From: Omnitrophica bacterium GWA2_41_15
GTDB lineage: Bacteria; Omnitrophota; Gorgyraeia; Ghiorseimicrobiales; Ghiorseimicrobiaceae
Direction: 5' to 3'
Length of the DNA stretch: 64,000 bases
NCBI GenBank assembly: GCA_919902105.1
Contig: CAKKQO010000017.1
Span: 3,305-67,304 of the forward strand
Part shown: positions 11,703 through 61,556 of the stretch, piece by piece
How positions within the stretch are numbered: position 1 is the stretch's first letter
How the letters are laid out: each line of letters starts with the position of its first letter
Made by a program: the position numbers and the translations under genes
Notes under the pieces: model-generated
The model's input: only the letters and a program-made list of their open reading frames with translations
The model's database searches: none
Told to the model about the DNA's origin: nothing

Positions 11703-11704
11703 AA

Positions 11705-14041
11705 ATGAAAAAGAAAAAATTAATTATTGGGCTGTTGAGTTTGGTAATTATTGGTTTTTTAATTTTTCAACTTGCGCCTGCGGATTATTATGCCAAATTA
11801 GGCAGGGTTTTTTATAAAATAGCGCTAGAGAAATACAAAAAAGAAAATACCCAAATAAGCCGCATGAAATTAGGCAAATTGTATTTTGAGTTGGGCAAAT
11901 ACGAATTAGCATATGAGACACTTTCAGGGATAAATTCTCTGCCTGCCCAGAAGGCCAGCGCCTATGCTTTATTTAAATTGAATAAATTTACCGAAGCGCT
12001 CGCCATATTTAGCAAATTAGGCAGATTAAATGACCCCGAATACCTTTATTACTATGGTCTAACCTGCGAGAAGAGCAATCTCTATGATGAAGCAGAGAAA
12101 ATTTACCGCAAAATCAGCGCTGGCGCGTATAAGCTAAAAGCAGAGGAAAGACTTCTCGCTCTTTCTCATCTGGTGGAAGGTGAAGTAAGCGCGGATATCT
12201 TAACGCTCTTGGAAAGTTCTCCGGGGCAAGTTGATTATCCGGAAGCAGGGGCATTGATATTGTCTGTTAAAGAAGAATTAGAAATATTGCCGGATAATAC
12301 TTCAGTATCTACATCGCATATCTTGGTTAAAATTTTAAACGACCGCGGCAAAGACGCCTTTTCAGAGGTGGTTTTGGGGTATGATTCTACTTATGAAAGG
12401 GTAGAACTTGATTTTGCCCGCACGATTAAACCGGATGGTATGAGTATTTCGGTAGGAGATAAAAATATCCGTGATGTCTCAGTGTATTTAAACTTTCCGC
12501 TTTACAGTAATGCCCGGGCAAAGATTATTTCTATGCCGGAGGTCGTAAGCGGATGTGTTATCGAATATAAGGCGCGTGTTTATAATGGCAAATTAATGGC
12601 GGATAGGCATTTTTCTACTGCCTATTTTCTGCAGGAAGCCGAGCCGGTCGTTTATTCAAGTTTTAAGCTGGTTGTCCCGAAAGATAGAAAGCTAAATATA
12701 AAAGTTTTGAACAGCGGATACAACAAAATCGGCGCTGATCTTAATCCTAAGATTAGCCAAGAAAACGGAAAAACAATATATTTTTTAGAAATAAAAAACA
12801 TCCCGCAGATAATCCCTGAGCCAAGCATGCCGCCTAAAGCAGAAATAGATACGATTCTTTTGATTTCCAGCTTTACTTCCTGGGATGAGATGTTTAACTG
12901 GTGGAGCAAGTTATATAAAGATAAAATCATAGCCGATGAAAATATAAAAAACAAAGTTAAGGAGTTAACCAAAGGTCTTGTTTCGGATAAGGATAAAGCA
13001 GCGGCAATTTATAATTTTTGCGCTCAAGAAATAAGGTATGTAGCGGTAGAATACGGCGATGCCGGATATGAGCCGCATTATGCCTCAGAGATATTCTTAA
13101 ATAAATACGGCGACTGTAAAGATAAAGCCATGCTCTTGATTACAATGCTTAAAGAAGCGGGCCTTTTGGCATATCCGGTTTTAATCGGGACCGAAGGAAC
13201 CATTGTTTTGCAGGATGATTTTCCCATGTCGGTCTTTAATCACGCCATCGCTGTTTTAGAACTAAACGGAGAATATATCTTTCTTGATCCGACTGCCGAG
13301 ACAGTTTCCTTCGGGGATCTTCCTTCGGCCGACCAGGCAAGGAAAGTGCTGGTATTCTTTGAAGAGAAGTTTAAAATTATGACGACAGCGGATTTTGGGG
13401 TAGAGCGCAATTTCCTGCGGTCAGAGACAACGATTAAGATAAATAATGATGAATCTATATTGGCAGACCGCTCTGTTTCTGCATCAGGAATCTATGAGCA
13501 GGCGCAGAGATACTGGCTCATTTTTACTCCGCCGTCTTTAATCGAAGAGGCCATTAAGAATAAAGTGCAGGGTTTTTCGCCTAACGGCAGGCTGCTTGAT
13601 TATAAGATTGAAAACGCCCGGGATCTAAATAAAAAAGTAATCATTAATTATCGGTTTAGCGGAGACGATTTTTTGGCTAAGGCGGGGAAAGCCCGGATTT
13701 TATCAGAGTTTTCCGGAGGGGTTGATGTTTCTGCGATAGTAAAAGATGAGCGCGCCTACCCTATATATTTCGGCATACTCTCGCAGGGTGTCGATAGTAT
13801 AAAAATAAGCATACCCGAAAATTTGCGCTTTAAATACCTGCCGGATTCTGTGTATATCGATAATGAGTGGACGAAATTTTCCTCTGATTACATTGTTAAT
13901 GGCAGCACTCTAGAATATAGAAGCGAGTATTTACATAAGAAAAAATATATCCCTGTCAGCGAATATCAGCAGTATAAAAATTTTATAGAAGGTTTGGCGC
14001 GTAAGTTAAATCAGGCAATAATCTTAGAAGAGGTAAAATGA
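11705..14041 (+). CDS. TPR + DUF3857 + transglutaminase-like cysteine protease domain protein
   Basis: 778 aa. N-terminal TM and TPR-like repeats. Transglutaminase core YGDCKDKAMLL with downstream H and D. Confidence 0.7.
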   Translation: MKKKKLIIGLLSLVIIGFLIFQLAPADYYAKLGRVFYKIALEKYKKENTQISRMKLGKLYFELGKYELAYETLSGINSLPAQKASAYALFKLNKFTEALAIFSKLGRLNDPEYLYYYGLTCEKSNLYDEAEKIYRKISAGAYKLKAEERLLALSHLVEGEVSADILTLLESSPGQVDYPEAGALILSVKEELEILPDNTSVSTSHILVKILNDRGKDAFSEVVLGYDSTYERVELDFARTIKPDGMSISVGDKNIRDVSVYLNFPLYSNARAKIISMPEVVSGCVIEYKARVYNGKLMADRHFSTAYFLQEAEPVVYSSFKLVVPKDRKLNIKVLNSGYNKIGADLNPKISQENGKTIYFLEIKNIPQIIPEPSMPPKAEIDTILLISSFTSWDEMFNWWSKLYKDKIIADENIKNKVKELTKGLVSDKDKAAAIYNFCAQEIRYVAVEYGDAGYEPHYASEIFLNKYGDCKDKAMLLITMLKEAGLLAYPVLIGTEGTIVLQDDFPMSVFNHAIAVLELNGEYIFLDPTAETVSFGDLPSADQARKVLVFFEEKFKIMTTADFGVERNFLRSETTIKINNDESILADRSVSASGIYEQAQRYWLIFTPPSLIEEAIKNKVQGFSPNGRLLDYKIENARDLNKKVIINYRFSGDDFLAKAGKARILSEFSGGVDVSAIVKDERAYPIYFGILSQGVDSIKISIPENLRFKYLPDSVYIDNEWTKFSSDYIVNGSTLEYRSEYLHKKKYIPVSEYQQYKNFIEGLARKLNQAIILEEVK

Positions 14042-16486: not shown

Positions 16487-17209
16487 ATGGATATTGTCCC
16501 GCGCCAGAAAGATAATATAATAGTTTTATACTTAAGCGGAGATATAAATATTGACTCTGCCAATCTTATTGAATCCGTGGGTTACTATTTGGAAAATGGC
16601 ATAACCGATATACTCTGCGATTTTACTAATATAAATCTTGTGGATTATGCCGGCCTTTCGGTTTTAGCTATTGCCTATAAGGATGTAATGAATCATCACG
16701 GAAGGATGAAGTTTACGAACGTGCCTCTACACATCAGGAATATATTTTCGACAGTCTGTTTAGACAAGGTTTTTGAGCTCCATGAAAATGAGGATTTAGC
16801 ATTAAATAGTTTTAAGGAAGATAAAATTATAGAAGAAATAAAAAAGAAACAATTACGCCGCAGGTTCAAACGCCTGCCCATACTTATCCCGGCTTATTTT
16901 AAACTAAAAAGCTCCCTGGAAGATAAGATTCAAGACGGTAAGGTATATAACTTAAGCGCTATCGGCGCATACATTCTTTGCAAGAAGATATACGCCTTAG
17001 GCGATATTTTAGCGCTTACGATGAAACTTATGCCTAAGCCGGGCGAACTGGCCCTTGAGGGTAGGGTAATCTGGATCGCCCAAAAAGAACTTATGCCTCA
17101 GCTGTATCCGGGTATGGGAGTTGAGTTTTATAATATCAGCCCAAAAATGCAGGAGCAGGTGGTGCAATTTGTCGAGCGTAATCTGCCGCTTGAAAGCACG
17201 GCGGAATAA
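16487..17209 (+). CDS. STAS (anti-sigma-antagonist-like) domain fused to PilZ c-di-GMP-binding domain
   Basis: 240 aa. N-terminal STAS pattern (LVDYAGLSVL). C-terminal PilZ motifs RRRFKR (RxxxR) and NLSAIGA (D/NxSxxG). Confidence 0.7.
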   Translation: MDIVPRQKDNIIVLYLSGDINIDSANLIESVGYYLENGITDILCDFTNINLVDYAGLSVLAIAYKDVMNHHGRMKFTNVPLHIRNIFSTVCLDKVFELHENEDLALNSFKEDKIIEEIKKKQLRRRFKRLPILIPAYFKLKSSLEDKIQDGKVYNLSAIGAYILCKKIYALGDILALTMKLMPKPGELALEGRVIWIAQKELMPQLYPGMGVEFYNISPKMQEQVVQFVERNLPLESTAE

Positions 17210-17212
17210 ACT

Positions 17213-17230
17213 TGTCCCGCCGCAGGCGGA
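17213..17230 (+). repeat. GC-rich mini-hairpin of the CCGCC-GNA-GGCGG family (intergenic copy)
   Basis: GTCCCGCC-gca-GGCGGAC directly after the STAS-PilZ stop codon. Confidence 0.6.
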
Positions 17231-21933: not shown

Positions 21934-22047
21934 ATGAAGCCACAAGTTAGGGAACGTAAGTCGACATAACTTGTCTGGCTGAATTTATCCCGCCGAATAC
22001 CATAAAATTCTCTATTGATAATTTTATGGTATCTTATGAGGCGGGAG
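21934..22047 (-). repeat. Nested-hairpin boundary element (BH family), copy G, stop-codon-abutting orientation
   Basis: TAAATGAAG + AGCCACAAGTTA...TAACTTGTCTGGCT hairpin + GAATTT + ATCCCGCC[ACCATAAAATT...AATTTTATGGT]GGCGGGA. Confidence 0.7.
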
Positions 22048-22076: not shown

Positions 22077-22673
22077 ATGCAAATAATTATAATTTTAGGC
22101 ATCCTTCTGGCGTTAGTGAGCTTAGCTTTGCTGAAGCTATTGATGTTACGGCGCAGGTTCTGGATAGGAGTTTGTTTTATCCTTATTTTATTGCTTGGGT
22201 TAGTGTTAAGTTTTATCGGCTATTTGTTTAGCCCATACCGTATATTTGACGAAAATAAACCCGTAGCTTTAATTGAGTCAACGCCAGTCAAGGCCGAGAT
22301 TTATGACGCAGTGCTGGCAATAAAACACCTAACTAATCCTAAAAGCCGCAGGCCAGAAAAATTTCTGCTTACGGGGAATCGATGGATAATTGAGGGTAAT
22401 ATTCTAAAAGTAAAATTAAATAAAGGTGAGATTAATTTATATAGAATAGCGCGCATAAGAAGCGGCTATATTAATCCGGGAAACCTTAGGCCTTTTCCGG
22501 AATTAGCTTATAATTTATCTAAGCGCAGAGATATATTGGGGGATTTTTTAAATAAGCAAAAATTAGATTTTATAGAAGCATTTACCGGGACAGTTAGCTA
22601 TCGCAGCGGCGATGAAAAAGCCGAGTTTTATTTGTATGCTGCAGATAGCGGATTCAGGCTAGAGAAGGAATGA
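22077..22673 (+). CDS. Hypothetical membrane protein
   Basis: 198-aa ORF with two N-terminal TM helices. No motif recognised. Confidence 0.35.
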   Translation: MQIIIILGILLALVSLALLKLLMLRRRFWIGVCFILILLLGLVLSFIGYLFSPYRIFDENKPVALIESTPVKAEIYDAVLAIKHLTNPKSRRPEKFLLTGNRWIIEGNILKVKLNKGEINLYRIARIRSGYINPGNLRPFPELAYNLSKRRDILGDFLNKQKLDFIEAFTGTVSYRSGDEKAEFYLYAADSGFRLEKE

Positions 22674-24626: not shown

Positions 24627-24767
24627 CTCCGCCTCATAGGATGCCCTAAAATTTTCGTGCGATAATTTTAGGGCATTCGGCGGAGTTAATCCCGCGAGAA
24701 GCGGGATCAATTCCGGCATATAACTTATGAGCGCTTCGTTCCATAAGTTATGCCGTCATTGAGGAGG
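24627..24767 (+). repeat. Nested-hairpin boundary element (BH family), copy A, start-codon-abutting orientation
   Basis: CTCCGCC[ATGCCCTAAAATT...AATTTTAGGGCAT]GGCGGAG, ATCCCGC-gagaa-GCGGGAT, CAATTCC, GGCATATAACTTATG...CATAAGTTATGCC, GTCATTGAGGAGG, then TTG start 24773. Confidence 0.75.
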
Positions 24768-28823: not shown

Positions 28824-28895
28824 CGGCACAACTTATAGAGCCGTAAGGCGATATAAGTTGTATGCCGGAATTTATCCCGACCGAAGCGTCGGGAT
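28821..28895 (-). repeat. BH family copy B1, stop-codon-abutting orientation
   Basis: AAATGAC (the TGA is the stop of the upstream gene) + GGCACAACTTATA...TATAAGTTGTATGCC + GGAATTT + ATCCCGAC-cgaagc-GTCGGGAT. Confidence 0.75.
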
Positions 28896-28952: not shown

Positions 28953-29070
28953 TTGCTCCTTGCTTTAACGCTTGTAAATTTCTTCGAAATTTACTACGCA
29001 AGCTTCGGAGTCAATTCAGCCGGATAACTTATGGCATTCTGCGAATTCCATAAGTTATGGCTTCATTGAC
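28953..29070 (+). repeat. BH family copy B2: Q module + terminal hairpin, abutting the purH start
   Basis: The 65-nt Q module (28953-29017) is about 90 percent identical to 42711-42775. Then ATAACTTATGG...CCATAAGTTAT hairpin and TTCATTGAC before ATG 29071. Confidence 0.75.
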
Positions 29071-30633: not shown

Positions 30634-32079
30634 ATGACCCACCCCCAAGCAATCCGCTATTTAGAATCCTTAGTAAACTACGAGAAGAAATCCTATTATC
30701 ATTATAAACACGCATTTAAATTAGAGGGCATAAAGAATTTTTTAGAAATCTTGGGCAATCCGCAGGATTCTCTACGCTGTATTCATATTGCCGGCACTAA
30801 AGGTAAGGGTTCAACCTGTGCCTTTATTGCTCATATCTTAAGAGAGGCCGGACTTTCCGTCGGACTTTATACCTCGCCGCATTTATCGGATTTCCGCGAG
30901 CGCATTAGGATTTTAACCATACCACCTACTACCTATCACCTATCACCTGAATTTGAGGGGATGATTTCAAAACAAGCGTTATCGCGCTTGGCTTGGCGCC
31001 TAAAGCCGACAATAGATAAATTTAACCACAATTCTAAATACGGCCCGCTGACATTTTTTGAAGTTTATACGGCACTCGCCTTTATTTATTTTAAAGAAAA
31101 AAAAGTGGATTTTGCGGTTTTAGAGACGGGTTTGGGCGGAAGATTAGATGCCACAAATGTGATTAATCCTTTAGTCTGCGTAATTACCCCGATAAGTTTA
31201 GAGCATACTCAACTTTTGGGCAATACATTAACGAAAATTGCCCGCGAGAAGGTGGGTATTATCAAGAAGTTTCGCCCCTCGCCCCTCGCCCCTCGCCCCT
31301 CGGTAGTAATCAGCGCGCCGCAGGAGGAAGCAGCAGCTAGGGTGATTAGGGATAGATGTAGAAAAGTTGGCGCTAGATTATATGAAGTAGGGAAGGATAT
31401 AAGATACAAAAAATCCGAAATCCGAAATCCGAAATCCGAAATAAATCTAAAATCCAAAATCAAAAAATTTAAAATCCGCGGAATTTTTAATGAATATAAT
31501 AATTTAAAAATAAAACTTTTAGGTAAGCATCAGCTGGTGAATGCCGCCACGGCAGTGGGGGCAGTTGAGGCGTTAAAAAAATACGGCATTAGTGTAAATA
31601 TCGATGCGATAAGAAAAGGGCTTTATAATACGTTTTGGCCGGGCAGATGCGAAATTGTATCTAAGAAACCGTTAATTGTTTTAGACGGTGCGCAGAATGT
31701 TGCTTCAGCTAAGGCATTAAAAGAAACGATTAAAGAAAATTTTTCCACCGAAGGCGGATCCGCCTCCGGCGGAAAGTATAAAAAGTTAATTCTGGTTTTA
31801 GGGGCTTGTTGCGATAAAGATATTAAGGGAATATGTAATGAGTTGTGCTTGATGGCAGACGAAATCATCTTAACCAAAGCCAAAAACCCGCGGGCGGCGG
31901 AGCCGGAGCATATCAGGGTTCAGGGTTCAGGGTTAAGGGTTAAGGAAAAAATACATTTAACAGAAAATGTAGAGGAAGCGATTCAAAAAGCAGAAGAGCT
32001 TACTAGCAAAGAAGATTTAATCCTGATTACGGGGTCGTTGTTTGTGGTGGCAGAGGCGAGGGAAGTGTTGCAGAAATGA
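30634..32079 (+). CDS. folC: Folylpolyglutamate synthase / dihydrofolate synthase, with several low-complexity in-frame inserts
   Basis: 481 aa. HIAGTKGKGST P-loop, LETGLGGRLDATN, GKHQLVNAATA, LDGAQNV blocks. Start abuts the purH stop. Confidence 0.85.
   Translation: MTHPQAIRYLESLVNYEKKSYYHYKHAFKLEGIKNFLEILGNPQDSLRCIHIAGTKGKGSTCAFIAHILREAGLSVGLYTSPHLSDFRERIRILTIPPTTYHLSPEFEGMISKQALSRLAWRLKPTIDKFNHNSKYGPLTFFEVYTALAFIYFKEKKVDFAVLETGLGGRLDATNVINPLVCVITPISLEHTQLLGNTLTKIAREKVGIIKKFRPSPLAPRPSVVISAPQEEAAARVIRDRCRKVGARLYEVGKDIRYKKSEIRNPKSEINLKSKIKKFKIRGIFNEYNNLKIKLLGKHQLVNAATAVGAVEALKKYGISVNIDAIRKGLYNTFWPGRCEIVSKKPLIVLDGAQNVASAKALKETIKENFSTEGGSASGGKYKKLILVLGACCDKDIKGICNELCLMADEIILTKAKNPRAAEPEHIRVQGSGLRVKEKIHLTENVEEAIQKAEELTSKEDLILITGSLFVVAEAREVLQK
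30923..30950 (+). repeat. Heptanucleotide tandem array in folC (CACCTAT-type, 4 units)
   Basis: CACCTAC TACCTAT CACCTAT CACCTGA. Translated as PTTYHLSP. Confidence 0.85.
31272..31302 (+). repeat. Heptanucleotide tandem array in folC (TCGCCCC x4)
   Basis: TCGCCCC x4 then TCGG. Translated as RPSPLAPRPS. Confidence 0.9.
31411..31480 (+). repeat. Heptanucleotide tandem array in folC (AAATCCG x4 plus degenerate AAAATCC-type units)
   Basis: AAATCCG x4, then AAATAAATCT AAAATCC AAAATCA AAAAATTT AAAATCCGCGG. Translated as KSEIRNPKSEINLKSKIKKFKIRG. Confidence 0.9.
31742..31775. repeat. 34-bp GC-rich palindrome, folC copy (31/34 identical to the mnmE copy)
   Basis: TTTCCACCGAAGGCGGATCCGCCTCCGGCGGAAA. 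Two A-C mismatches in the stem. Translated as STEGGSASGGK. Confidence 0.85.
31923..31957 (+). repeat. Heptanucleotide tandem array in folC (TCAGGGT x3, TAAGGGT, TAAGGAA)
   Basis: Direct reading. Translated as RVQGSGLRVKE. Confidence 0.9.
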
Positions 32080-32108
32080 ACCCGGTAATTTTCTTTAGTT
32101 AAATTTAT

Positions 32109-32323
32109 GAGAATATCTTATGCCGTTTTCGCTCCAAATTGCAATTTTTTACGTCAGCTTCTCGATATTTTAAGGTGCCTGCGGAACTCCCCCACACCCA
32201 GTATGCTGGGTGTGGGGTCAGACAGTCCTCGGCACGCTTCCTCTTATTCATCGGAAGTGACCTTAAAATACCTGCGACTCCTGACTAAATTGCAAAATCG
32301 CTCAAACGACACAAGATATCCTC
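32109..32323 (-). ncRNA. Candidate rod-like structured RNA or MITE (element E3); strand assignment from wobble pattern
   Basis: 20-position outer helix 32109-32128 / 32304-32323 with three A-C mismatches on + that become G-U on -. Arms are similar for about 75 nt. Perfect 12-bp hairpin CCCCACACCCAG-tatg-CTGGGTGTGGGG (32190-32217). TAAATT direct repeat 3 nt outside each end. Confidence 0.4.
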
Positions 32324-32410
32324 CAATAAATTAGTTTAAAAATTACCAGTTTCATTTCTAAACTATTGCGAGGAGATAGGCGCAAAACGCAAAACTTTAA
32401 CTGGGAGGGG

Positions 32411-32929
32411 ATGATGAGGAAGGTATTATTAAAAGTCAGCGGTGTAATACTTATAATTTGGGGCTTAAGTTGGATTATCCCCTTATGTTTTATGCATGCA
32501 GAAAAGCGTCTATTACATACCGAAACGCGTGTTGTACATGACGTTATGCTCGGCATACCTTTATTAGGGGAAAGAATGCCCGTTATCCTGAGAAGATCCT
32601 TAAGGGTGACTGAGGAAATTATGCTATTCTTAGGTGGTCCTATCTTAATATTCGCGGGTATAAGATTATTTTCTTTTAAAAGATTGGCGCGGAAACTAGC
32701 CATATTTTCCTATTTAATAGTTTTAGCATACACTGTTTTTCTAAATATTTCTTGGTATATGTGTTCTACAGCGATAGACAACAGCGATGAAAGCCCATTT
32801 AGTATCGTAAGCATTATAGAATACTTTCGTTATTGGCCGCCACGTTATCTTATTGAGTTACTTATTCTTATGCTTATTCCCACATTTTTTATTGTTATTT
32901 TATTTAGGTATAAGGAACAATTTAAATAA
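32411..32929 (+). CDS. Hypothetical multi-TM membrane protein
   Basis: ATG 32411 after GGGAGGGG. Four or five predicted TM helices. No motif recognised. Confidence 0.4.
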   Translation: MMRKVLLKVSGVILIIWGLSWIIPLCFMHAEKRLLHTETRVVHDVMLGIPLLGERMPVILRRSLRVTEEIMLFLGGPILIFAGIRLFSFKRLARKLAIFSYLIVLAYTVFLNISWYMCSTAIDNSDESPFSIVSIIEYFRYWPPRYLIELLILMLIPTFFIVILFRYKEQFK

Positions 32930-33043
32930 CTTTACCTGCCCCAAAGTAAAGGCGCAGTTTTCTTCTGGAGGCGGATACGACTGCAGCAGTAATTAGCGGA
33001 AAGATATTAAGTATACTAAAGTAAACTTTAGATAACTTTTTTC

Positions 33044-33072
33044 TTGACAACCGGTATTTTCTGTGGTATATT
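33044..33072 (+). promoter_or_regulatory. Promoter TTGACA-17-TATATT (with TGn extended -10) for the toxin-antitoxin operon
   Basis: TTGACA 33044-33049, TGG-TATATT 33064-33072, GGAGGTG SD, ATG 33093. Confidence 0.65.
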
Positions 33073-33092
33073 TTTGTTGGAGGTGAAAGATA

Positions 33093-33320
33093 ATGCATAG
33101 AATATCTTACGCAGTTAAAATCGAGCCTTCTTTGATAAAAAAAGTAAGGGAATTTTGCCTGCAGCACGGGGTAAAACAAGGGTTTTTTATTGAAAAAGCG
33201 CTCAGGGAACAATTAGCCAGAGAGGAATTGATTGAAGACCTGATAGATTTTAAAAATCTGCGTATTCAGGAGGGTTCCGCGATTAGCTTTGAGGATTATT
33301 TGAAAAAGAGGGCTTCGTAA
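33093..33320 (+). CDS. Type II antitoxin (small DNA-binding protein upstream of a RelE/ParE toxin)
   Basis: 75 aa. Stop overlaps the toxin start (TAATG). Acidic C-terminal half. Confidence 0.6.
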   Translation: MHRISYAVKIEPSLIKKVREFCLQHGVKQGFFIEKALREQLAREELIEDLIDFKNLRIQEGSAISFEDYLKKRAS

Positions 33321-33571
33321 TGTATCGCCTCAAAATAATCGCCCATGCCCAGAAAGATCTCGATACTTTCCACGGGAAAGATTTTGAAAGCATAAAAAAG
33401 AAAATATTGAGCCTTTCGACTAATCCCCGTCCTTTTGGTGCAATAAAACTGACGCAAGAAGAAAGTTATCGTATTAGGGCAGGTGATTGGCGTATTTTAT
33501 ATAGAATAGACGATAAACAGAAAGAAGTAATTATATATCGTATCAAACATAGAAAAGAAGCCTACCGCTAA
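33320..33571 (+). CDS. RelE/ParE-family type II toxin
   Basis: 83 aa. Pattern KDLD....I...I..L..NP.P.G..KL......YRIR.GDWRILY.I.D....V.I..I.HRKEAY is typical of RelE/ParE. Confidence 0.75.
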   Translation: MYRLKIIAHAQKDLDTFHGKDFESIKKKILSLSTNPRPFGAIKLTQEESYRIRAGDWRILYRIDDKQKEVIIYRIKHRKEAYR

Positions 33572-33611: not shown

Positions 33612-35099
33612 ATGATTGATACAAGGTTTAATCTAACCGACACAATCGCGGCGATGGGGACGGGGCTAGGGGAAGCCGGTATCGGAATTGTGCGCATTAG
33701 TGGAAAAGATGCGCTAAAGATTGCCGATAAGATTTTTGTTGGTAAAGACGGTAACAAACCGTCGCAATTTAAAACATATACGCTGCATTATGGGTGGATT
33801 GTGAATAGTCCACAGTCCATAGTCCGTAGTCCACAGAAAAAAAAGAAGAAACTACCGACTACCGACTACCGACTACCGACTAATATTATCGATGAAGTGC
33901 TTTTGACGGTAATGCGCGCGCCCAAGAGTTATACTAAGGAAGATGTAGTGGAGATAAATTGCCATGGAGGGATTGTGGCAATGCGGGCGGTATTAGATTT
34001 GGTTTTGGCGAATGGGGCGCGCCTTGCCTCTGGCGGTGAATTTACCAAGCGTGCCTTTTTAAACGGAAGGATTGATTTAAATCAGGCAGAGGCAGTTCTG
34101 GATATAATTCGCGCCAAAACAGATAGTGCGCTTAAAATAGGGACAGAGCAGTTAAGAGGGATATTGTCTTTGCAAATAAATAAACTGCATAAGGATTTGT
34201 TAGGCGTACTTACGATATTAGAAGCAAATATTGATTTTCCCGATGAAGAAATTGGCGCGGTTAATTTAAAAGAGGTTAATAAAAAGCTCAAGACCACAAA
34301 GAATAAACTAAAAGATATTGTAGATTTGGCAAAGCGCGGGCAAGTGCTGCGCGATGGTATTGGCGCGGTTATCTGCGGCAGGCCCAATGTGGGCAAATCC
34401 TCGCTTTTGAATGCGCTCTTAAGAAGGGAGCGCTCTATCGTTAGCCCGGTTGCCGGCACTACCCGTGACACAATAGAGGAAATTATCGATATAAAAGGCA
34501 TTCCAATTAGGATTGTAGATACTGCAGGAATTATTGAGCCGCGGGATTTAGTGGAAAAAAAGGCGGTTTCGCGCTCTAAGCGCGTTATTGATCTGGCGGA
34601 TTTGGTGATTTTGCTTTTTGACGGCAGCCAAAAATTAAACAAAGAAGATAGTGCGCTGATTAAAAAATTTCCTCCGAAGGCGGATCCGCCTTCGGAGGAA
34701 AGCAAAAAGCAAGTTATCGCGGTTATAAATAAAATAGACCTAAGGCAAAAAATAAAAAAAGAGAAACTAAATAAAGTATTTGAATGTGTAATTGAGCTTT
34801 CAGCGAAGAAAATAAAGAATATAAATTTATTAGAAGATGCGATTGCGGGTTTGGTGTTTGGCGGAAAAATCAATAAATCCGAGTCTCTACTGGTGAGTAA
34901 TTTAAGGCATATTGAGTTGCTTAGGGGAGCGCAAAAAACTCTTGGCCAGGCCTGCGATTCGCTGGATAATAAAGTGTCTCTTGAATTCATTGCCCAGGAT
35001 ATTAAGGCGGCCTTAGGTTATTTTGATGATATTTTAGGTAAGAAATTTTCCGAAGACCTATTGGATAAGATATTTGGGGAGTTTTGTATCGGTAAATGA
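33612..35099 (+). CDS. mnmE: tRNA modification GTPase MnmE with in-frame repeat inserts
   Basis: 495 aa. DTIAA..T, SYTKEDVVEINCHGG, GRPNVGKSSLLNAL, VAGTTRD, DTAG, C-terminal FCIGK. Confidence 0.85.
   Translation: MIDTRFNLTDTIAAMGTGLGEAGIGIVRISGKDALKIADKIFVGKDGNKPSQFKTYTLHYGWIVNSPQSIVRSPQKKKKKLPTTDYRLPTNIIDEVLLTVMRAPKSYTKEDVVEINCHGGIVAMRAVLDLVLANGARLASGGEFTKRAFLNGRIDLNQAEAVLDIIRAKTDSALKIGTEQLRGILSLQINKLHKDLLGVLTILEANIDFPDEEIGAVNLKEVNKKLKTTKNKLKDIVDLAKRGQVLRDGIGAVICGRPNVGKSSLLNALLRRERSIVSPVAGTTRDTIEEIIDIKGIPIRIVDTAGIIEPRDLVEKKAVSRSKRVIDLADLVILLFDGSQKLNKEDSALIKKFPPKADPPSEESKKQVIAVINKIDLRQKIKKEKLNKVFECVIELSAKKIKNINLLEDAIAGLVFGGKINKSESLLVSNLRHIELLRGAQKTLGQACDSLDNKVSLEFIAQDIKAALGYFDDILGKKFSEDLLDKIFGEFCIGK
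33806..33880 (+). repeat. Two heptanucleotide arrays joined by an A-run inside mnmE (TAGTCCA-type x4, ACTACCG x4)
   Basis: TAGTCCA CAGTCCA TAGTCCG TAGTCCA (33806-33833), A-rich linker, ACTACCG x4 (33851-33878). Translated as SPQSIVRSPQKKKKKLPTTDYRLPTN. Confidence 0.9.
34668..34701. repeat. Perfect 34-bp GC-rich palindrome inside mnmE
   Basis: TTTCCTCCGAAGGCGGATCCGCCTTCGGAGGAAA. Translated as FPPKADPPSEE. Confidence 0.9.
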
Positions 35100-40497: not shown

Positions 40498-41130
40498 ATG
40501 GCGGAAATTGGGAGGGCGAGCAAAATGAAAGGGAAGACGGAAATATTTGTTTTAATCATAATCTTCCTCTGCGGCTTGGCAGGCTTTTCTTTATATAAGT
40601 ACGCAGGGATAAATATAGATTTAGGCCGCGAGAAGAAGCAGTTGATAGAGTTAGAAGCAAGAAATAATGCAATAACTCAAGAATTAGGAGAACAGAAAGT
40701 GCGCCTTAGCCAAGTAAACGAGGAGAAGAAAAACCTTGAAGAAGAAGTAACTCTCGGCAGGCAAAATTTAGGCCAGCTGAAGCTAGAATTAGCGGATAGC
40801 CGCAAGTCACTGGCAAGTTTACAAAGGACGGTCGAAGAATTAACTGCCGTTAATCAGAATTTAAATCAGGAACAGGCTGCTCTAAAGGCAAAAATCGAAG
40901 AATTAACCAGCCGAAAAAATACTTTAGAGGCGAAGATAAGTTCTGTAGAAGAACTTAAACAGATGTTGAAAGATTTAATAAAGTCAAAAAGAACCCAGCG
41001 CCACAGGAAGGCGAGAGCAAAGATAAACACAGAACAAGAATCAAAAGATAAAAACCATGGTTATATCATTTATCAGGGAAAACCTACCTTTAAGCCTAAG
41101 ATTTCTATACAGGTAAGACCCGTCCTTTAA
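40498..41130 (+). CDS. Membrane-anchored coiled-coil protein
   Basis: 210 aa. One TM helix, then a long heptad-rich segment (LEEEV..LKLELADSRKSLASLQ..). The start could be ATG 40525. Confidence 0.4.
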   Translation: MAEIGRASKMKGKTEIFVLIIIFLCGLAGFSLYKYAGINIDLGREKKQLIELEARNNAITQELGEQKVRLSQVNEEKKNLEEEVTLGRQNLGQLKLELADSRKSLASLQRTVEELTAVNQNLNQEQAALKAKIEELTSRKNTLEAKISSVEELKQMLKDLIKSKRTQRHRKARAKINTEQESKDKNHGYIIYQGKPTFKPKISIQVRPVL

Positions 41131-41216
41131 AGGTATCAGGACGGTCTACCCTTGTAGGGTAAGACCCGTCCTTTAAAGGTATCAGGACGGTCTACCCTTG
41201 TAGGGTAATACCCGCC
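41112..41216 (+). repeat. 46-nt tandem duplication (2.3 copies) spanning the gene end; each unit forms a hairpin
   Basis: GGTAAGACCCGTCCTTTAAAGGTATCAGGACGGTCTACCCTTGTAG at 41112 and 41158, with a partial third copy. Contains AGACC(C)GTCCT/AGGACGGTCT and TACCC/GGGTA stems and a GTAG motif. Confidence 0.85.
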
Positions 41217-43821: not shown

Positions 43822-44844
43822 ATGGAAAAACAAGATATAAAAAATCTGTCTTTGGCAGAATTAAAGGCAGATTTACTTGCCTTATCTTTTGCTCCTTATG
43901 TAGCAGAGCAAATTTTCACTTGGCTCTATAAAAAGAGAATAAGTAGTTTTTCTGGAATGTCCAATATCTCTAAGGGCAATATTTCTAAATTAAAAAATAA
44001 ATTTTATATCGGTGATATAGCCTTGAAAGATAAGTTGATATCCAAAGACGGAACAATAAAATTTCTCTTTGGATTAATAGATAAAGAGGCGGTAGAGACC
44101 GTATTTATTCCCGCCAAAAACAGGAATACCCTTTGCCTTTCTTCACAGGTAGGCTGTAAATTCAGGTGTTTATTTTGCGCCAGCGGCAAGAGTTTTGTCA
44201 GAAATTTATCCGTTTCTGAAATCACTTCGCAGTTATCCAGAATAATTGAGATTACAGGCGCCGCGGTAAGCCACCTCGTATTTATGGGAATAGGCGAGCC
44301 GTTGGATAATTATGATAATGTATTTAAAGCCGTACGGATTTTTAACGCTCCTTCGGCTTTTAATATCGGCGCGCGCCGCATTACCATTTCTACCTGCGGC
44401 ATAATCCCTGCGATTGAAAATTTAGCACGGCAAGGCCTGCAGGTAGAATTATCCATATCTTTACATGCGGCAGATAATGAGCTAAGGAATAAGCTTATGC
44501 CCGTGAATAAAAGGTACCCTTTGGATAAATTAATTTCCTGCGTGCGCGAGTATATAAAACAAACTAACCGCCAGATTACCTTCGAGTATATTTTAATAAA
44601 AGGATTAAATGATAGTTTATCTTGCGCCGATAAATTGTCTAAGCTTTTATCCGGGCTAAATTTTAAAGTTAACCTTATTCTATTTAATCTGCAGGAAGGG
44701 TCTTGTTTTCAGCCGCCAGACAAAAAACTTGTCTTAGGTTTTAAAGAGCGGCTGATAAAAAATGGCACTCATGCAACTACAAGAGCATCACGCGGCCAGG
44801 ATATTCGTGCTGCCTGCGGGCAATTAAGAATAGCGCATAATTAG
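43822..44844 (+). CDS. rlmN: 23S rRNA/tRNA (adenine-C2)-methyltransferase RlmN (radical SAM)
   Basis: 340 aa. CLSSQVGCKFRCLFCASG, MGIGEPLDN, C-terminal IRAACGQL. Confidence 0.85.
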   Translation: MEKQDIKNLSLAELKADLLALSFAPYVAEQIFTWLYKKRISSFSGMSNISKGNISKLKNKFYIGDIALKDKLISKDGTIKFLFGLIDKEAVETVFIPAKNRNTLCLSSQVGCKFRCLFCASGKSFVRNLSVSEITSQLSRIIEITGAAVSHLVFMGIGEPLDNYDNVFKAVRIFNAPSAFNIGARRITISTCGIIPAIENLARQGLQVELSISLHAADNELRNKLMPVNKRYPLDKLISCVREYIKQTNRQITFEYILIKGLNDSLSCADKLSKLLSGLNFKVNLILFNLQEGSCFQPPDKKLVLGFKERLIKNGTHATTRASRGQDIRAACGQLRIAHN

Positions 44845-44880
44845 GGACACATCCCATTTTTAAAAAATGGGATGTGTCCC
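44844..44880. repeat. Perfect 18-bp-arm palindrome between rlmN and the deacetylase gene
   Basis: GGGACACATCCCATTTTT / AAAAATGGGATGTGTCCC with no spacer. Overlaps the last base of the rlmN stop codon. Confidence 0.85.
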
Positions 44881-44891
44881 TAATAAATAAT

Positions 44892-46147: not shown

Positions 46148-46269
46148 CCTCCTCAATGACGACACGACTTATGGAAATCGTAGATTGATATAAGTCGTAT
46201 GTCGGAATTGATACCGAAAGCTGCGATAAAAATTTGGAACAAATTTTTGAAGCGTTTTACTTTCGGTAT
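46148..46269 (-). repeat. BH family copy E (minus orientation), abutting the rpmA start
   Basis: On the - strand: ATACCGAAAG[...AAAAATTT..AAATTTTT...]CTTTCGGTAT, CAATTCC, GACATACGACTTAT...ATAAGTCGTGTC, GTCATTGAGGAGG, 8 nt, ATG. Confidence 0.75.
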
Positions 46270-52231: not shown

Positions 52232-52317
52232 TGGTGCCGAAGAAGGGAGTTGAACCCTTACGAGCTTACGCTCATCGGTTTTTGAGACCGACGTGTATGC
52301 CATTCCACCACTTCGGC
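52232..52317 (-). tRNA. tRNA-Leu (anticodon CAA), class II with long variable arm, CCA encoded
   Basis: Reverse complement GCCGAAG-TG-...TCGGT-CTCAAAA-ACCGA...AAGGGTTCAACTCCCTT-CTTCGGC-ACCA folds as a cloverleaf with anticodon loop CU-CAA-AA. Confidence 0.9.
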
Positions 52318-52893: not shown

Positions 52894-52969
<76 letters not shown>

Positions 52970-54898: not shown

Positions 54899-55393
54899 AT
54901 GGCGAATTTTTCTTTTGATATTGTTTCAGAAGTAGATATGCAGGAAGTGGATAACGCCATAAATCAGGCCAAAAAAGAGCTTGTCCAGCGCTATGATTTT
55001 AAGGGCAGTAAGTCTTCGATTGAATTTGACCGTAGCGAAAAAAAATTGACCCTAATCGGAGATGATGATTTTAAACTGCGCGCCTTAAGGGATATTTTAG
55101 CAGGGCGCCTTGCCAAAAGAGGAGTCTCGTTTAAATTTCTTACTTTTAAAGAGCCGGAAAAGGCATTTGAGGGGACCTTGCGCCAGCAGGTGGAAATTGT
55201 AAGCGGCATAGACAAAGAAAAAGCCAGAGATTTAAATAAGATTATAAAGGAGTTAGGGCTAAAGGTGCAGACGCAGATTGAGGGAGAAAAAATCCGGGTA
55301 ATATCAGCAAAAAAAGACGACTTGCAGACAGTGATTGCGCATTTAAGAAGCATTGATTTTCCGCTCCCGCTTTCCTTTTGTAATTATAGGTAA
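54899..55393 (+). CDS. YajQ family nucleotide-binding protein (UPF0234)
   Basis: 164 aa. SFDIVSEVDMQEVDNAINQAKKE...RYDFKGS pattern is diagnostic of YajQ. Confidence 0.8.
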   Translation: MANFSFDIVSEVDMQEVDNAINQAKKELVQRYDFKGSKSSIEFDRSEKKLTLIGDDDFKLRALRDILAGRLAKRGVSFKFLTFKEPEKAFEGTLRQQVEIVSGIDKEKARDLNKIIKELGLKVQTQIEGEKIRVISAKKDDLQTVIAHLRSIDFPLPLSFCNYR

Positions 55394-55397
55394 GCCT

Positions 55398-57833
55398 ATG
55401 CAATACGATTTTTCCCAAATAGAAGCTAAATGGCAGAAGTTCTGGCAGAAAAACAAGAGCTTTCGCGCCGCCATCGATAAAACCCGCAAAAAGTTTTACT
55501 GCCTTGAGATGTTTCCTTATCCCTCAGGTAGGATACATATGGGCCATGTGCGTAATTATACTATCGGTGATGTAATTGCCCGCTATAAGTGGATGCAGGG
55601 TTTTAATGTGCTGCATCCAATGGGCTTTGACGCCTTTGGCCAGCCGGCAGAAAACGCCGCGATAAAGAATAATTCCGACCCCAAAGAATGGACCTATAAA
55701 TGCATAGATTGGATGAAGGCTCAACTTAAGAAGATGGGGTTTTCCTATGATTGGGAAAGGGAAGTTGTGACCTGTGGCCCCGCATATTATCGCTTCAACC
55801 AGTGGATATTTTTAAAGATGCTCGAGCGCGGGCTTGCTTATAAGAAGGCATCAACCGTTAACTGGTGCCCGAGCTGCGAGACAACGCTCGCCAATGAAGA
55901 AGTTATTGACGGCGCATGCTGGCGCTGCAAGAACGCTGTAGCCCAAAAAGATTTAGAGCAGTGGTACCTTAAAATTACCGCCTATCAGGAAAGGTTATTG
56001 GAAGATTTAAAGCAATTAGCGCATTGGCCCGAACAAGTAATTGCGATGCAAGAGAATTGGATAGGCAAGAGCTCCGGGTGCGAAATTTATTTTAAGCTTC
56101 GCGATAGCGGGGAGATTATCCCGGTTTTTACCACCCGCGCAGACACTATTTTTGGCGTAACTTATATCGTGCTGGCGCCGGAGCATACAATAATATCAAA
56201 AATTTCTGCCGAAGGCGGAAAAGGCCATATATCAAACCTCAAAGAAGTTGAGCAATATATTGAAGCAGCGAAAAAGAAAACAAAATTAGAAAGAATTGAA
56301 AGAGATAAAACCGGCATACAGTTAAAAGGTATTACAGCCATAAACCTGGTAAACAACGAAGAAATACCTGTTTTTATTGCCGACTATGTGCTTATGGAAT
56401 ATGGCACCGGCGCAATTATGGCTGTCCCTACGCACGACCAGCGGGATTTTCTCTTTGCCAAAGAGCATAATCTGCCGATGCGGATTGTAATTCAGGCTCC
56501 AGGCTCCAGGCTGCAAGCTCCAAGCGAAATGAAAGAAGCATACGAGGGCGATGGGGTGCAAGTTAATTCTGGAGAATTTGACGGTTTACCTAACCAAGAA
56601 GCGAAGATAAAGATTGCGCAGTGGATAGAAGATAAGGGTATGGGAAAAATCTCCACCCAATGGCGCCTAAAGGATTGGCTGATTTCCCGCCAGCGTTATT
56701 GGGGGACACCCATTCCGGTGATTTACTGTCCAAAGTGCGGTATTGTCGGTGTGCCTTACGAAGACCTGCCGGTTGAGTTACCTGAAAAAGTAAAGATTAC
56801 AGGCGTTGGCGGAAGCCCGCTTTCTAAGGTAAAGGAATTTGTTGTGGTAAAATGCCCGAAATGTAGCGGCCGCGCCCTTCGGGAAACTGATACTATGGCG
56901 ACTTTTATTGATTCTTCGTGGTATTTCTTAAGATACTGCTCGCCGGATTTTGACAAGGCGCCGTTTGATAAAGACGAGGCGGCCTATTGGATGAAGGTGG
57001 ATCAGTATATCGGCGGCATTGAGCATGCGGTCCTGCATTTATTATATTCGCGTTTTTTTACCAAATTTTTTAAGGATTTAGGGATGCTTGATTTTTCCGC
57101 CGAAGGCGGAGATGAGCCGTTTGATAAATTGCTTACCCAGGGGATGGTGCTTAAAGACGGCGAGGTAATGTCAAAATCACGCGGCAATATAGTGGATCCG
57201 GATGAGATTATTAATAAATATGGCGCAGACACCCTGCGGCTTTTTATTCTTTTTGCCGCACCACCCGAAGCGGAACTTGAATGGAACGATACAGCCATAG
57301 ACGGCTCTTTTAAATTTTTAATGCGCATCTTTCGCCTTTTAGAAAAAGCCGCTGATAAAACTCCGAGCGCCGAACTCTTGCGCCGCCTGCATAGTACGAT
57401 TAAAAAAGTTACTGAAGATATGGAGGGCGGTTTTAAGTTTAACACTGCGATTAGCGCAATTATGGAATTAGTCAACGAAATCTATAAAAGTGATTCCGTA
57501 AACAAGGAAATTCTAAAGACGCTTACGATTTTAATCTCGCCGTTTGTCCCGCATATGGCAGAAGAGATGTGGCAGGCACTCGGTGCAAAAGAAAGCATCT
57601 TAAAAGTCCGCTGGCCTGAGTTTAAGCCTGAGTTTTTAAAATTAGACAAAGTTACGCTGGTTGTGCAGATTAACGGCAAGGTGCGCGAAAAAATAGAAGC
57701 AGAAGTTGATATAGATAAAGAAAGCCTAAAAGAATTAGTTTTAGCCAGCAATACTGTAAAGAAATGGATTGAAAATAAGCCGGTCAAAAATTTTGTAATT
57801 GTGCCGAATAAATTAGTAAATATCGTAGTTTAA
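55398..57833 (+). CDS. leuS: Leucyl-tRNA synthetase
   Basis: ATG 55398. FPYPSGRIHMGHVRNY (HIGH), KMSKSRGN-type VMSKSRGN (KMSKS), and CP1/zinc motifs. Confidence 0.9.
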   Translation: MQYDFSQIEAKWQKFWQKNKSFRAAIDKTRKKFYCLEMFPYPSGRIHMGHVRNYTIGDVIARYKWMQGFNVLHPMGFDAFGQPAENAAIKNNSDPKEWTYKCIDWMKAQLKKMGFSYDWEREVVTCGPAYYRFNQWIFLKMLERGLAYKKASTVNWCPSCETTLANEEVIDGACWRCKNAVAQKDLEQWYLKITAYQERLLEDLKQLAHWPEQVIAMQENWIGKSSGCEIYFKLRDSGEIIPVFTTRADTIFGVTYIVLAPEHTIISKISAEGGKGHISNLKEVEQYIEAAKKKTKLERIERDKTGIQLKGITAINLVNNEEIPVFIADYVLMEYGTGAIMAVPTHDQRDFLFAKEHNLPMRIVIQAPGSRLQAPSEMKEAYEGDGVQVNSGEFDGLPNQEAKIKIAQWIEDKGMGKISTQWRLKDWLISRQRYWGTPIPVIYCPKCGIVGVPYEDLPVELPEKVKITGVGGSPLSKVKEFVVVKCPKCSGRALRETDTMATFIDSSWYFLRYCSPDFDKAPFDKDEAAYWMKVDQYIGGIEHAVLHLLYSRFFTKFFKDLGMLDFSAEGGDEPFDKLLTQGMVLKDGEVMSKSRGNIVDPDEIINKYGADTLRLFILFAAPPEAELEWNDTAIDGSFKFLMRIFRLLEKAADKTPSAELLRRLHSTIKKVTEDMEGGFKFNTAISAIMELVNEIYKSDSVNKEILKTLTILISPFVPHMAEEMWQALGAKESILKVRWPEFKPEFLKLDKVTLVVQINGKVREKIEAEVDIDKESLKELVLASNTVKKWIENKPVKNFVIVPNKLVNIVV
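56203..56221 (+). repeat. GC-rich mini-hairpin TTTCTGCC-GAA-GGCGGAAA inside leuS
   Basis: Direct reading. Translated as SAEGGK. Confidence 0.6.
56493..56527 (+). repeat. Heptanucleotide tandem array in leuS (CAGGCTC-type, 5 units)
   Basis: CAGGCTC CAGGCTC CAGGCTG CAAGCTC CAAGCGA. Translated as QAPGSRLQAPSE. Confidence 0.85.
57094..57110 (+). repeat. GC-rich mini-hairpin TTTCCGCC-GAA-GGCGGA inside leuS
   Basis: Direct reading. Translated as FSAEGGD. Confidence 0.6.
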
Positions 57834-61506: not shown

Positions 61507-61556
61507 AATGAGTGCATAACTTAGAGAGCTCGATAGAGCGATATAAGTTATATACA
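61507..61556 (-). repeat. Solo BH-type terminal hairpin (copy I)
   Basis: TAATGAG + GTGCATAACTTA-gagagctcgatagagcgata-TAAGTTATATACAC. Confidence 0.55.

Follow-up and report, generated by a model that had tools for sequence, protein, structure and literature searches.

A 15-nucleotide hairpin repeat inside mnmE, folC and leuS of an Omnitrophota bacterium, probably a dispersed micro-element that recurs across bacterial phyla

How does the same GC-rich palindrome come to be translated in two different reading frames in two unrelated genes of one bacterium? The question arises from a stretch of 64,000 nt of Omnitrophica bacterium GWA2_41_15 (assembly GCA_919902105.1, contig CAKKQO010000017.1, positions 3,305 to 67,304 of the forward strand), which we refer to as the window and whose own numbering is used below. 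One copy, TTTCCTCCGAAGGCGGATCCGCCTTCGGAGGAAA at 34668-34701, lies in mnmE (tRNA modification GTPase; 33612-35099, + strand, 495 aa) and is a perfect 34-bp palindrome, equal to its own reverse complement. The other, TTTCCACCGAAGGCGGATCCGCCTCCGGCGGAAA at 31742-31775, lies in folC (folylpolyglutamate/dihydrofolate synthase; 30634-32079, + strand, 481 aa); it is identical to the mnmE copy at 31 of 34 positions, and its palindrome is imperfect. The first base of the palindrome is codon position 1 in mnmE, which reads FPPKADPPSEE, and codon position 2 in folC, which reads STEGGSASGGK. Both the pair of sequences and the difference in frame had been described from the sequence alone (hereafter the sequence-only reading), and we verified them; Pfam matches back the identities of the hosts as MnmE and FolC/Mur ligase. 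The 22-mer core, with at most three mismatches, occurs twice in the window compared with 0.00 times in 100 dinucleotide shuffles, and the 34-mer folds as DNA with -18.1 kcal/mol (z -6.6). The answer that we favor, with modest confidence, is that the two palindromes are copies of a dispersed, non-coding and non-autonomous hairpin micro-element of 15 nt, usually present as a 30-nt inverted doublet and remodelled by hairpin-driven replication errors.

What repeats is a unit of 15 nt, the hairpin TCCGCC-NNN-GGCGGA, with the stem TCCGCC/GGCGGA and a 3-nt loop that is RRA or its complement TYY, and both palindromes are inverted doublets of this unit, 30 nt in length. The mnmE doublet (element proper 34670-34699) is TCCTCC-GAA-GGCGGA followed by TCCGCC-TTC-GGAGGA and reads PPKADPPSEE; its second unit is the reverse complement of the first, with the loop alone flipped (GAA/TTC). 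The folC doublet (31744-31773) is TCCACC-GAA-GGCGGA followed by TCCGCC-TCC-GGCGGA and reads STEGGSASGG. The 34-bp palindrome that had been taken as the element is real, but its unit has a length of 15 nt and the doublet one of 30 nt, and the outer TT(T) and (A)AA, including the TT and AA that flank the mnmE doublet, belong to the insertion site.

A search of the 64 kb with TCCGCCNNNGGCGGA, allowing at most one mismatch, finds seven units compared with 0.16 expected. They occupy five sites, and six of the seven are inside genes: two in folC, two in mnmE and two as single units in leuS (leucyl-tRNA synthetase; 55353-57833, + strand), the seventh being intergenic. The leuS units are TCCGCCGAAGGCGGA at 57096-57110 and, with one mismatch, TCTGCCGAAGGCGGA at 56205-56219 (flanks ATT|AAA), and both are read SAEGG. 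The intergenic unit, CCCGCCGCAGGCGGA at 17216-17230, is degenerate and lies 6 nt past the stop of a STAS/PilZ open reading frame (ORF; 16487-17209). (No strand is assigned to palindromes or units.) Among the GC-rich stems of the window, only those with CCGCC recur. Since one unit amounts to five codons and the consensus doublet is stop-free in any frame, an ORF is never broken, although the absence of stops in all six frames is unremarkable as a special property, being common to 38% of shuffled 30-mers.

The element is not restricted to this bacterium. A scan of GTDB (one genome per species, pattern CGAAGGCGGATCCGCCTYCG) finds at least 119 loci, and the counts of copies given from here on are counts among the matches listed. 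Seventy-nine of these hold the full 28-nt CCGCC...GGCGG core, with the consensus TCCGCCGAAGGCGGATCCGCCTYCGGCGGA and with unrelated flanks, while approximately fifteen are the bare core in GC-rich isolates and look like chance. The full copies come from more than 10 phyla, with a local GC content of 31-68%; all are in metagenome-assembled genomes (MAGs), and contigs of 0.95-3.15 Mb, of long-read style, are included. CAVYGQ010000001.1, JAHFLF010000001.1 and OY969815.1 are examples of long contigs with the element. According to record titles, the hosts include Patescibacteria (Kaiser-, Sacchari-, Doudna-, Nomura-, Pacei-, Harrison-, Azam- and Taylorbacteria), Omnitrophota, Planctomycetia, Kiritimatiellae, Lentisphaerae, Verrucomicrobia, Dehalococcoidia/Chloroflexi, Elusimicrobia, Ignavibacteria, Bacteroidota, Bdellovibrionales and proteobacterial MAGs. 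In 549 kb of the listed loci there are 28 further variant units compared with 1.2 expected; their stems are constant and their loops vary, mostly as RRA and TYY triplets. With seven units in the window and at least 119 loci in GTDB, the concern that the palindrome might be unique to its first two sites falls away.

The mnmE site suggests how the element enters a gene. The window has two units at this site, relative L001 (protein 91% identical to that of the window) has approximately three, spanning 52 nt, L002 (87%) has one clean 15-nt hairpin, TT[TCCGCC-TTC-GGCGGA]AA, and L003 (82%) has a decayed single unit, TTTCCGCCGCAGGCAAAA. In L125, L126 and L127, which are at most 76% identical, the site is uninterrupted (AAA TTA|AGG). 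Removal of the 15 nt from L002 gives AAAAAATTAAGC, compared with AAAAAATTAAGG at the empty sites, the filled form being AAATT[15 nt]AAGC. The mnmE copy is read in the rare PPKADPP frame because it was inserted after the second base of the TTA codon.

At the folC site, L127 is empty (AGC TTT|AAA TAT), and the filled sites (window, L125, L126 and L090) have TTT[TCCGCC...GGCGGA] followed by AAG, AGC, CAA or CGC and then TAY. The folC insert is exactly 30 nt, and neither here nor in mnmE is any target sequence duplicated. Among 25 Omnitrophota orthologues of folC, 19 are filled and six, scattered over the folC tree, are precisely empty. Two orthologues have one unit (SAEGE, SAKGG), most have two, and some have more or decayed units, with the substitutions in the element clustering at the two loop codons. 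With 19 of the 25 orthologues filled, the element at this site is either old or recurrent. An exact look-up of the folC product finds no other assembly of the same strain on record. In the genes for GatA and trigger factor, the element occupies different positions in different genomes, with empty counterparts, and L125, which also carries a direct doublet (loops TCG/TTG), has eight units in 21 kb, compared with none in L127. The sequence-only reading had interpreted the palindrome as a DNA element and not as ancestral residues, and had looked to empty orthologous sites as a check. Such sites exist in both genes (TTT|AAA in folC, TTA|AGG in mnmE): the residues are missing from the MnmE orthologues at or below 76% identity, which have a clean empty site, and from six folC orthologues.

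The flanks of the 79 copies from other genomes share a simple pattern, with T at -3 (80%) and -1 (97%) and A at +1 (99%) and +3 (86%), positions farther out being uninformative. From this pattern, the TTT...AAA that brings the palindrome to 34 bp is a T-rich|A-rich target and not part of the element. We considered whether the stem might extend into the flanks; however, the -2/+2 pairs are T-A (24), C-A (17), T-G (14) and G-A (9) without covariation, which indicates a target preference. The element is seen as a precise insertion of 15 or 30 nt at T-rich|A-rich (TT|AA) sites, without target duplication. As a separate observation, two Patescibacteria MAGs differ in an orthologous region, in which L054 (approximately 1060-1120) has one doublet and L051 (approximately 270-370) has a degenerate doublet, a 14-nt spacer and a second doublet; the L051 arrangement is a tandem duplication of doublet plus spacer.

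In the solved structures of homologues, the element sites coincide with gaps: 10 aa in MnmE (1XZP) and 10 aa in FolC (1O5Z), both from T. maritima, exactly 5 aa in T. thermophilus LeuS (1H3N) for the unit at 57096-57110, and 6 aa in the same protein around the unit at 56205-56219. These gaps imply that the host tolerates 5-10 extra residues. In an AlphaFold (AF2) model of MnmE, which is of low confidence (mean predicted local distance difference test, pLDDT, of 62) and was used solely to place the inserts in low-confidence coil, the segment is predicted as coil between helix H344-352 and strand E367-373, with residues 357-363 below a pLDDT of 50.

Once present, the element is conserved at the level of DNA. 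In folC orthologues that are 64-74% identical in DNA, 27-29 of its 30 nt are identical, and codon identity at conserved residues is 88-100% within the element compared with 43-66% elsewhere; in general, the element stays 90-100% identical while the host genes are 64-74% identical. Two Saccharibacteria MAGs encode class II aminoacyl-tRNA synthetases (aaRS) with 55% protein identity, and there all 30 nt of the element agree at the same site (p about 2e-4). At the folC site, pristine, decayed and empty states coexist, as is expected of a repeat element and not of an essential motif.

It is this conservation of the stems that keeps alive the main rival to our interpretation, which is that the hairpin itself is selected as a functional cis-element, either as the recognition site of a widely shared protein (for example a DNA-uptake signal of ultra-small competent bacteria, or a nuclease or methylase site) or as a hairpin that protects or paces the mRNA, with the coding copies being those that are tolerated. 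We regard this as unlikely. In its support, the loops are free while the stems are conserved, synonymous sites within the element are far more conserved than those of its host gene, several of the non-coding copies follow closely on stops (17216 in the window; 3931 and 8272 in L125), and comEA and comEC are present. The uptake sequences of Pasteurellaceae and Neisseria likewise favor certain frames where they lie within genes, and they too form inverted pairs. However, uptake sequences have a density of approximately 1 per kb, compared with approximately 1 per 10 kb here, and a single recognition sequence over 31-68% GC and many phyla would be unprecedented for them. In addition, the element arrives by insertion and not by point mutation, and the coexistence of its three states at one site, together with the scattered precise absences, is poorly matched to a selected signal.

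With Rfam 15 at the gathering threshold, the palindrome belongs to no family, its best sub-threshold match being a meaningless microRNA model (E = 0.86); the sole matches in the window are two tRNA genes (52235-52317, - strand; 52894-52966, + strand). The hairpin is not an intrinsic terminator, as there is no T-run after it, its 3' flank is A-rich (positions +1 and +3, above), and most window copies are inside ORFs. An interspaced array of the CRISPR type (clusters of short palindromic repeats at regular spacing) was also rejected, since at most approximately three units abut at any site. No array of four or more abutting units occurs in 241 million metagenome records, and the idea of a master array was dropped.

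For the 79 copies, we use the term coding where the ORF extends 150 nt or more to each side of the copy, and non-coding-looking where fewer than 60 nt are open on one side. By these definitions 42 copies are coding, 14 are non-coding-looking and 23 are indeterminate. Thirty-nine of the 42 coding copies are in phase 0 and read SAEGGSA(S/F)GG (p about 1e-15), and the other frames read PPKADPPSAE and RRRRIRLRR. The window folC copy therefore has the common coding form and the mnmE copy the rare one, and the impression from these two genes that the element is indifferent to frame does not survive the larger sample. Variants with one loop transition, which are asymmetric, account for 31 of 42 coding copies compared with 4 of 14 non-coding ones (p = 0.004), and of these 31 asymmetric coding copies 23 are oriented so that Ser replaces Phe, a T-to-C change (p = 0.005). 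Inserts within genes are always a multiple of three, and the predicted insert-bearing peptides include ENFSTEGGSASGGK and FPPKADPPSEESK. The coding copies are filtered at the peptide level. Pfam matches were obtained for 17 of 20 host ORFs scanned, and the hosts elsewhere include E2 acyltransferase, heptosyltransferase, TsaD, O-antigen ligase, P-type ATPase, GatA (twice), trigger factor (twice), class II aaRS (twice), SMC, chorismate synthase (AroC), GMP synthase (GuaA) and a translational GTPase-family ORF.

Such filtering might be taken further, with the peptide (SAEGGSASGG) being selected as a flexible linker and the likeness in DNA a by-product, given that most coding copies are rich in Gly, Ser and Ala and that the Phe to Ser change is commoner among them. 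It might also be asked whether the element is an artefact of assembly or sequencing, all of the full copies being in MAGs. We find either of these scarcely credible. A linker does not explain codon-for-codon identity even in AT-rich genomes, the 14 copies that look non-coding (beside the 23 that are indeterminate), or the frames that read PPKADPPSAE and RRRRIRLRR. An artefact is at odds with the many projects and assemblers involved, the inclusion of contigs of 0.95-3.15 Mb, the constant multiple of three and the signs of selection in coding copies, and with a unit number that differs between related strains from independent data sets.

The hairpin units are accompanied by a second type of repeat. 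The window contains eight period-7 arrays with 3.7 copies or more, and every one of them falls in folC (five), mnmE (two) or leuS (one), which are the only window genes with hairpin units. The folC arrays are in frame on the + strand, within 30923-31945: CACCTAT x3.7 (30923-30948), TCGCCCC x4.4 (31272-31302), AAATCCG x4.6 (31411-31442), AAATCTA x4.7 (31443-31476) and TCAGGGT x4.7 (31913-31945). In mnmE, a composite at 33807-33882 (+ strand) consists of AGTCCAC x4.3, an A-rich spacer and ACTACCG x4.6, with the second unit by eye the reverse complement of the first at approximately 6 of 7 positions; it is missing from L127, and other lineages have different units at the same site. The leuS array is CAGGCTC x4.3 at 56493-56522 (+ strand; QAPGSRLQAPS). 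This array (IQAPGSRLQAPSE) aligns with ERPGEPLPEP of T. thermophilus LeuS with only a 2-aa gap, and so seems to have overwritten existing sequence instead of being a full 33-nt addition. In approximately 1.03 Mb examined, period 7 is the commonest class of tandem repeat, with 92 arrays (median 4.4 copies, mostly 27-36 nt). Those of the three syntenic relatives are almost all in folC and mnmE, the exceptions being two weak arrays in L125, at the start and just past the end of the neighboring 23S-rRNA-IVP gene.

In the orthologues examined, the array sites are hot spots at which the units differ by lineage and the length stays at approximately 33 nt. At folC site 1, for example, concerted evolution has given the units ACCTATC, ACCAATC, ACCTAGA and CCCGAGC. 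At folC site 3 (31411-31476), where two arrays stand in the window, L125 carries a hairpin doublet and after it a short array, and the site is empty in both L127 and L090. CAAGCTG arrays occur in different genes of different Omnitrophota genomes (L126 folC, 11275-11309, and the N-terminal mnmE array of L002), which, together with the related CAGGCTC of leuS, suggests a limited repertoire of heptamer units. In other genomes (L005, L022 and L119) the doublet is often central in a longer imperfect palindrome with heptamer-array arms; the mnmE composite has the same architecture with an A-rich center. An array detectable by TRF lies within 60 nt of 9 of the 79 doublets (11%) compared with 2.6% of random positions (p about 2e-4). 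Hairpin units and heptamer arrays thus share genes, one hot spot and a size of 30-33 nt. Heptamers are the commonest 5-11-nt class of bacterial repeat, and their horizontal spread has been suspected, with the mechanism not known (PMC4679880); four- to five-copy intragenic heptamer arrays have been noted before without explanation (PMC2700814; PMC4679880). The reports on the earlier cases (Geobacter metallireducens; the TAACTGA arrays of Beggiatoaceae and cyanobacteria) deal with arrays alone and mention no conserved hairpin module, whereas both are present here.

These shared features permit a bolder proposal, to which we give only a small measure of belief: that hairpin and arrays of approximately 33 nt are two outputs of one undiscovered and widely distributed process that writes modules of approximately 30 nt into TT|AA sites, essential genes included. 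This could be a system of enzymes dedicated to insertion or repair, or else a route of "selfish oligonucleotides" that needs no enzyme, in which nuclease-resistant hairpin DNA would be taken up by competent ultra-small bacteria through ComEA/ComEC and integrated at replication forks. If the latter were true, short DNA that encodes nothing would be spreading between bacterial phyla.

The behavior of the arrays also bears on the opposite possibility, that nothing moves at all, and that the units arise locally by slippage or template switching from GC-rich Ser-Ala/Gly-Gly codons, with their likeness due to convergence. Unit number does change in place, direct and inverted doublets both exist, the heptamer arrays that share these sites show local concerted evolution, and the symmetric form TCCTCC...GGAGGA recurs in an unrelated contig (L128). 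Convergence would nevertheless have to produce an identical 28-30-mer, loops included, in 79 unrelated contexts, in three frames and in non-coding DNA and over 31-68% GC. The empty sites (TTT|AAA and TTA|AGG) have no GC-rich seed, and in the window only CCGCC stems recur. We therefore consider a purely local origin very improbable. The L128 contig is short and holds the one other instance found of this mnmE variant, which is not decisive for a transposing subfamily of that form.

On the interpretation as a dispersed micro-element, near-identity across phyla would imply copying from pre-existing copies together with horizontal spread, and later remodelling would take place where the element stands, by slippage between the 6-nt direct repeats that it contains and by template switches across its quasi-palindrome. 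Such errors would give zero, one, two or three units, doublets both direct and inverted, loops that are flipped, and changes that are symmetric on the two arms. The mnmE copy is a possible example: a single stem mismatch is present in either unit (TCCTCC/GGCGGA and TCCGCC/GGAGGA), the symmetry of the 34-mer is nevertheless perfect, and the outer arms in L001 and L002 are canonical. It is best read as one inverted duplication of a single unit that was already mutated; a template switch that corrected a quasi-palindrome would also explain it in one step, and two separate substitutions that happen to be complementary are a less likely route. The driver could be a sequence-specific factor acting in trans, which would not be encoded in the window, or uptake and illegitimate integration of DNA. 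Directly downstream of leuS are comEA (HHH_3; 57862-58209) and comEC (Competence/DUF4131; 58187-59632), by which DNA-uptake machinery is encoded, and gene exchange between groundwater Patescibacteria and Omnitrophota, as well as competence in Patescibacteria, have been reported (PMC12455944); these are plausible routes of exchange. We take the element to be selfish or neutral, and not a device of the host gene.

Several points weigh against this interpretation. No insertion has been caught between near-identical genomes, so that mobility is deduced from comparing orthologues that are far apart; for the folC site, an ancient insertion that was repeatedly and precisely lost would fit as well as repeated gain. 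The strong conservation of the stems could instead mean selection for function. Approximately 52 of the 64 window ORFs with 70 aa or more were scanned against Pfam, and the matches were limited to housekeeping, efflux, ParE, ComEA/ComEC and regulator families, with no mobilising gene (transposase, RAYT, TnpA or reverse transcriptase) and no parent element; the search for RAYT- or TnpA-like genes proposed in the sequence-only reading thus found none among the ORFs scanned. Template switching and slippage are drawn from their end states, and the density of copies is modest (five sites in 64 kb). There is no full copy in 72,556 PLSDB plasmid records or in 50,697 INPHARED phage records, and a viral vector was rejected because the one match in 2.9 million IMG/VR contigs (L124) is without outer arms, in GC-rich DNA, and thus a matter of chance. 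With no full copy in these collections, the vehicle for spread across phyla is unseen.

If our interpretation is true, the element is among the smallest repeat elements seen to colonize essential genes, and its passage between phyla almost unchanged requires either that the machinery which recognizes it be shared widely or that very short DNA travel by a new route among ultra-small, uncultivated bacteria. The 30-mer is a directly searchable marker for the origin of heptamer arrays and tiny hairpin repeats and for their co-location. In practical terms, inserts of 5-11 residues inflate and misalign conserved marker proteins of Patescibacteria and Omnitrophota, and they evolve in concert and not by descent. 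They also provide a natural catalogue of tolerated insertion sites in MnmE, FolC, LeuS, GatA and TsaD.

Some further features of these genomes are recorded here. Between folC and mnmE (32107-33571) the window has two ORFs without assigned identity, an antisense ORF and a ParE toxin gene (33320-33571). This slot is variable: in L126 it holds an MNT/HepT pair (11658-12889), in L125 an ORF without assigned identity (11783-12148), with the 23S-rRNA-IVP gene just after mnmE (13568-13975), and in L127 the two genes overlap. One Caldilineaceae MAG (L026, L072, L089 and L099) has a second family, in which the core CGAAGGCGGATCCGCCTTCG is central in much longer palindromes with CAGGCT-repeat arms (e.g., ...GTAGCCTGAGCCTGTCGAAGGCGGATCCGCCTTCGACAGGCTCAGGCTAC...). 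The longest inverted repeat in the window, a perfect 22+22 nt (ATTAGGGACACATCCCATTTTT / AAAAATGGGATGTGTCCCTAAT; 44840-44884), lies exactly between rlmN and a deacetylase gene. A 46-nt tandem repeat of 2.2 copies with 98% identity (41112-41214) covers the end of ORF 40498-41130 and the spacer before a DUF212 gene. Finally, there are two families of AT-rich inverted repeats, AYAACTTATRG...CYATAAGTTRT and ATRCCMTAAAATT...AATTTTAKGGYAT, which are seemingly intergenic (28828-28861, 29024-29058, 46164-46198 and 61516-61551; also 21997-22032, 22077-22102 and 24641-24676).

Neither the DNA strings nor the peptides that they encode gave any match in full-text searches of the literature, and no description of this element was found in the literature on repeat elements of Omnitrophota or the candidate phyla radiation (CPR). 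Of the known systems, the Rickettsia palindromic elements (RPEs) are those to which the sequence-only reading had likened the palindrome. RPEs are palindromic, occur in frame in unrelated housekeeping genes, are missing in orthologues, and have translated segments that are compatible with the fold of the host protein (PMC10969869). The likeness holds insofar as the present element is inserted in frame into unrelated ORFs (folC, mnmE, leuS and others), is tolerated in loops and is missing in some orthologues. It does not extend to size, taxon or recurrence: RPEs are approximately 100-150 bp and form genus-restricted families with a conserved peptide, whereas this element is 15-30 nt, has an Omnitrophota host and occurs in more than 10 phyla, with approximately half of the 79 copies in long ORFs and some non-coding, a variable number of units, and heptamer arrays alongside. 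MITEs (transposable elements of miniature size with inverted repeats) differ in having a target-site duplication, which is not found here (TTT[30]AAG vs TTT|AAA; ATT[15]AAG vs ATTA|AGG), and in their length of approximately 50-500 bp with terminal inverted repeats derived from an insertion sequence, whereas here the whole element is a 30-nt palindrome.

The repetitive extragenic palindromes (REPs) and the REPINs that they form come closer in architecture, being short GC-rich imperfect palindromes, non-autonomous and dispersed, whose inverted doublets give a larger hairpin (PMC3116915). The element has the same arrangement of an inverted short-palindrome doublet that forms a hairpin, and its copies are dispersed with several per genome. 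These features, together with the lack of target duplication and the short preferred target, raise the possibility that it is a minimal derivative of hairpin-recognizing single-strand transposition, of the IS200/IS605 TnpA or REP/REPIN-RAYT type, with the doublet as the mobilized unit and the enzyme elsewhere in each genome. IS200/IS605 elements likewise insert without target duplication at short preferred targets. We think such an origin improbable, because the great majority of REPs lie outside genes and are specific to a lineage, whereas 42 of the 79 copies are in long ORFs, six of the seven window units are intragenic, and the distribution is cross-phylum. REPINs are also several times larger, and 15-30 nt is far below the known sizes of REPINs or PATEs; they are species-specific and are associated with a flanking tetranucleotide (such as GTAG) and a RAYT gene, while here the flanks have T/A preferences only, and no Y1 transposase (Y1_Tnp) or RAYT was found among the approximately 52 window ORFs scanned.

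The small dispersed repeats (SDRs) of cyanobacteria attributed to Elhai et al. 2008 (Genome Res 18:1484) are reportedly hairpin repeats of 21-27 nt, often embedded in heptamer (STRR) arrays and sometimes nested. They are said to vary in presence between close genomes, to have no obvious transposase and to form families specific to Nostocales. On this description, the element would be like them in the size class, the hairpin, the lack of duplication and the adjacency of arrays (9 of 79 copies compared with 2.6% of random positions, and at the level of genes in the window), and would differ from them in the phyla and probably in the sequence, the element being cross-phylum, with many copies in frame in essential genes and an array adjoining only 11%. 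The mobile GC clusters of yeast mitochondria, which the element resembles in its contrast of composition, and the byps of Magnusiomyces are GC-rich palindromes of 30-55 nt that spread in AT-rich genomes and favor AT-rich targets, and they can be found inside coding genes (e.g., the optional clusters in var1); byps interrupt the reading frame, and the ribosome passes over them. Those elements are organellar and eukaryotic, whereas the present one, being a multiple of three, stop-free and under selection at the peptide level, appears to be simply translated. Uptake sequences (DUS/USS) are short conserved motifs of competent bacteria that lie within genes in tolerated frames and as inverted pairs; they number approximately 1 per kb, arise by point mutation and are family-specific, in contrast to an element that is inserted, present as seven units at five sites in 64 kb, and cross-phylum. 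The element departs from RPEs in size and taxon, from MITEs in target duplication and in a parent insertion sequence, from REPs and REPINs in its location within genes and in its flanks (with no RAYT among the window ORFs scanned), and from uptake sequences in density and origin, and it is not a terminator, a known Rfam family or an interspaced array. Small palindromic repeats that are tolerated in frame were already known; what is new is the constancy of this one across phyla, which is unmatched among the elements compared here.

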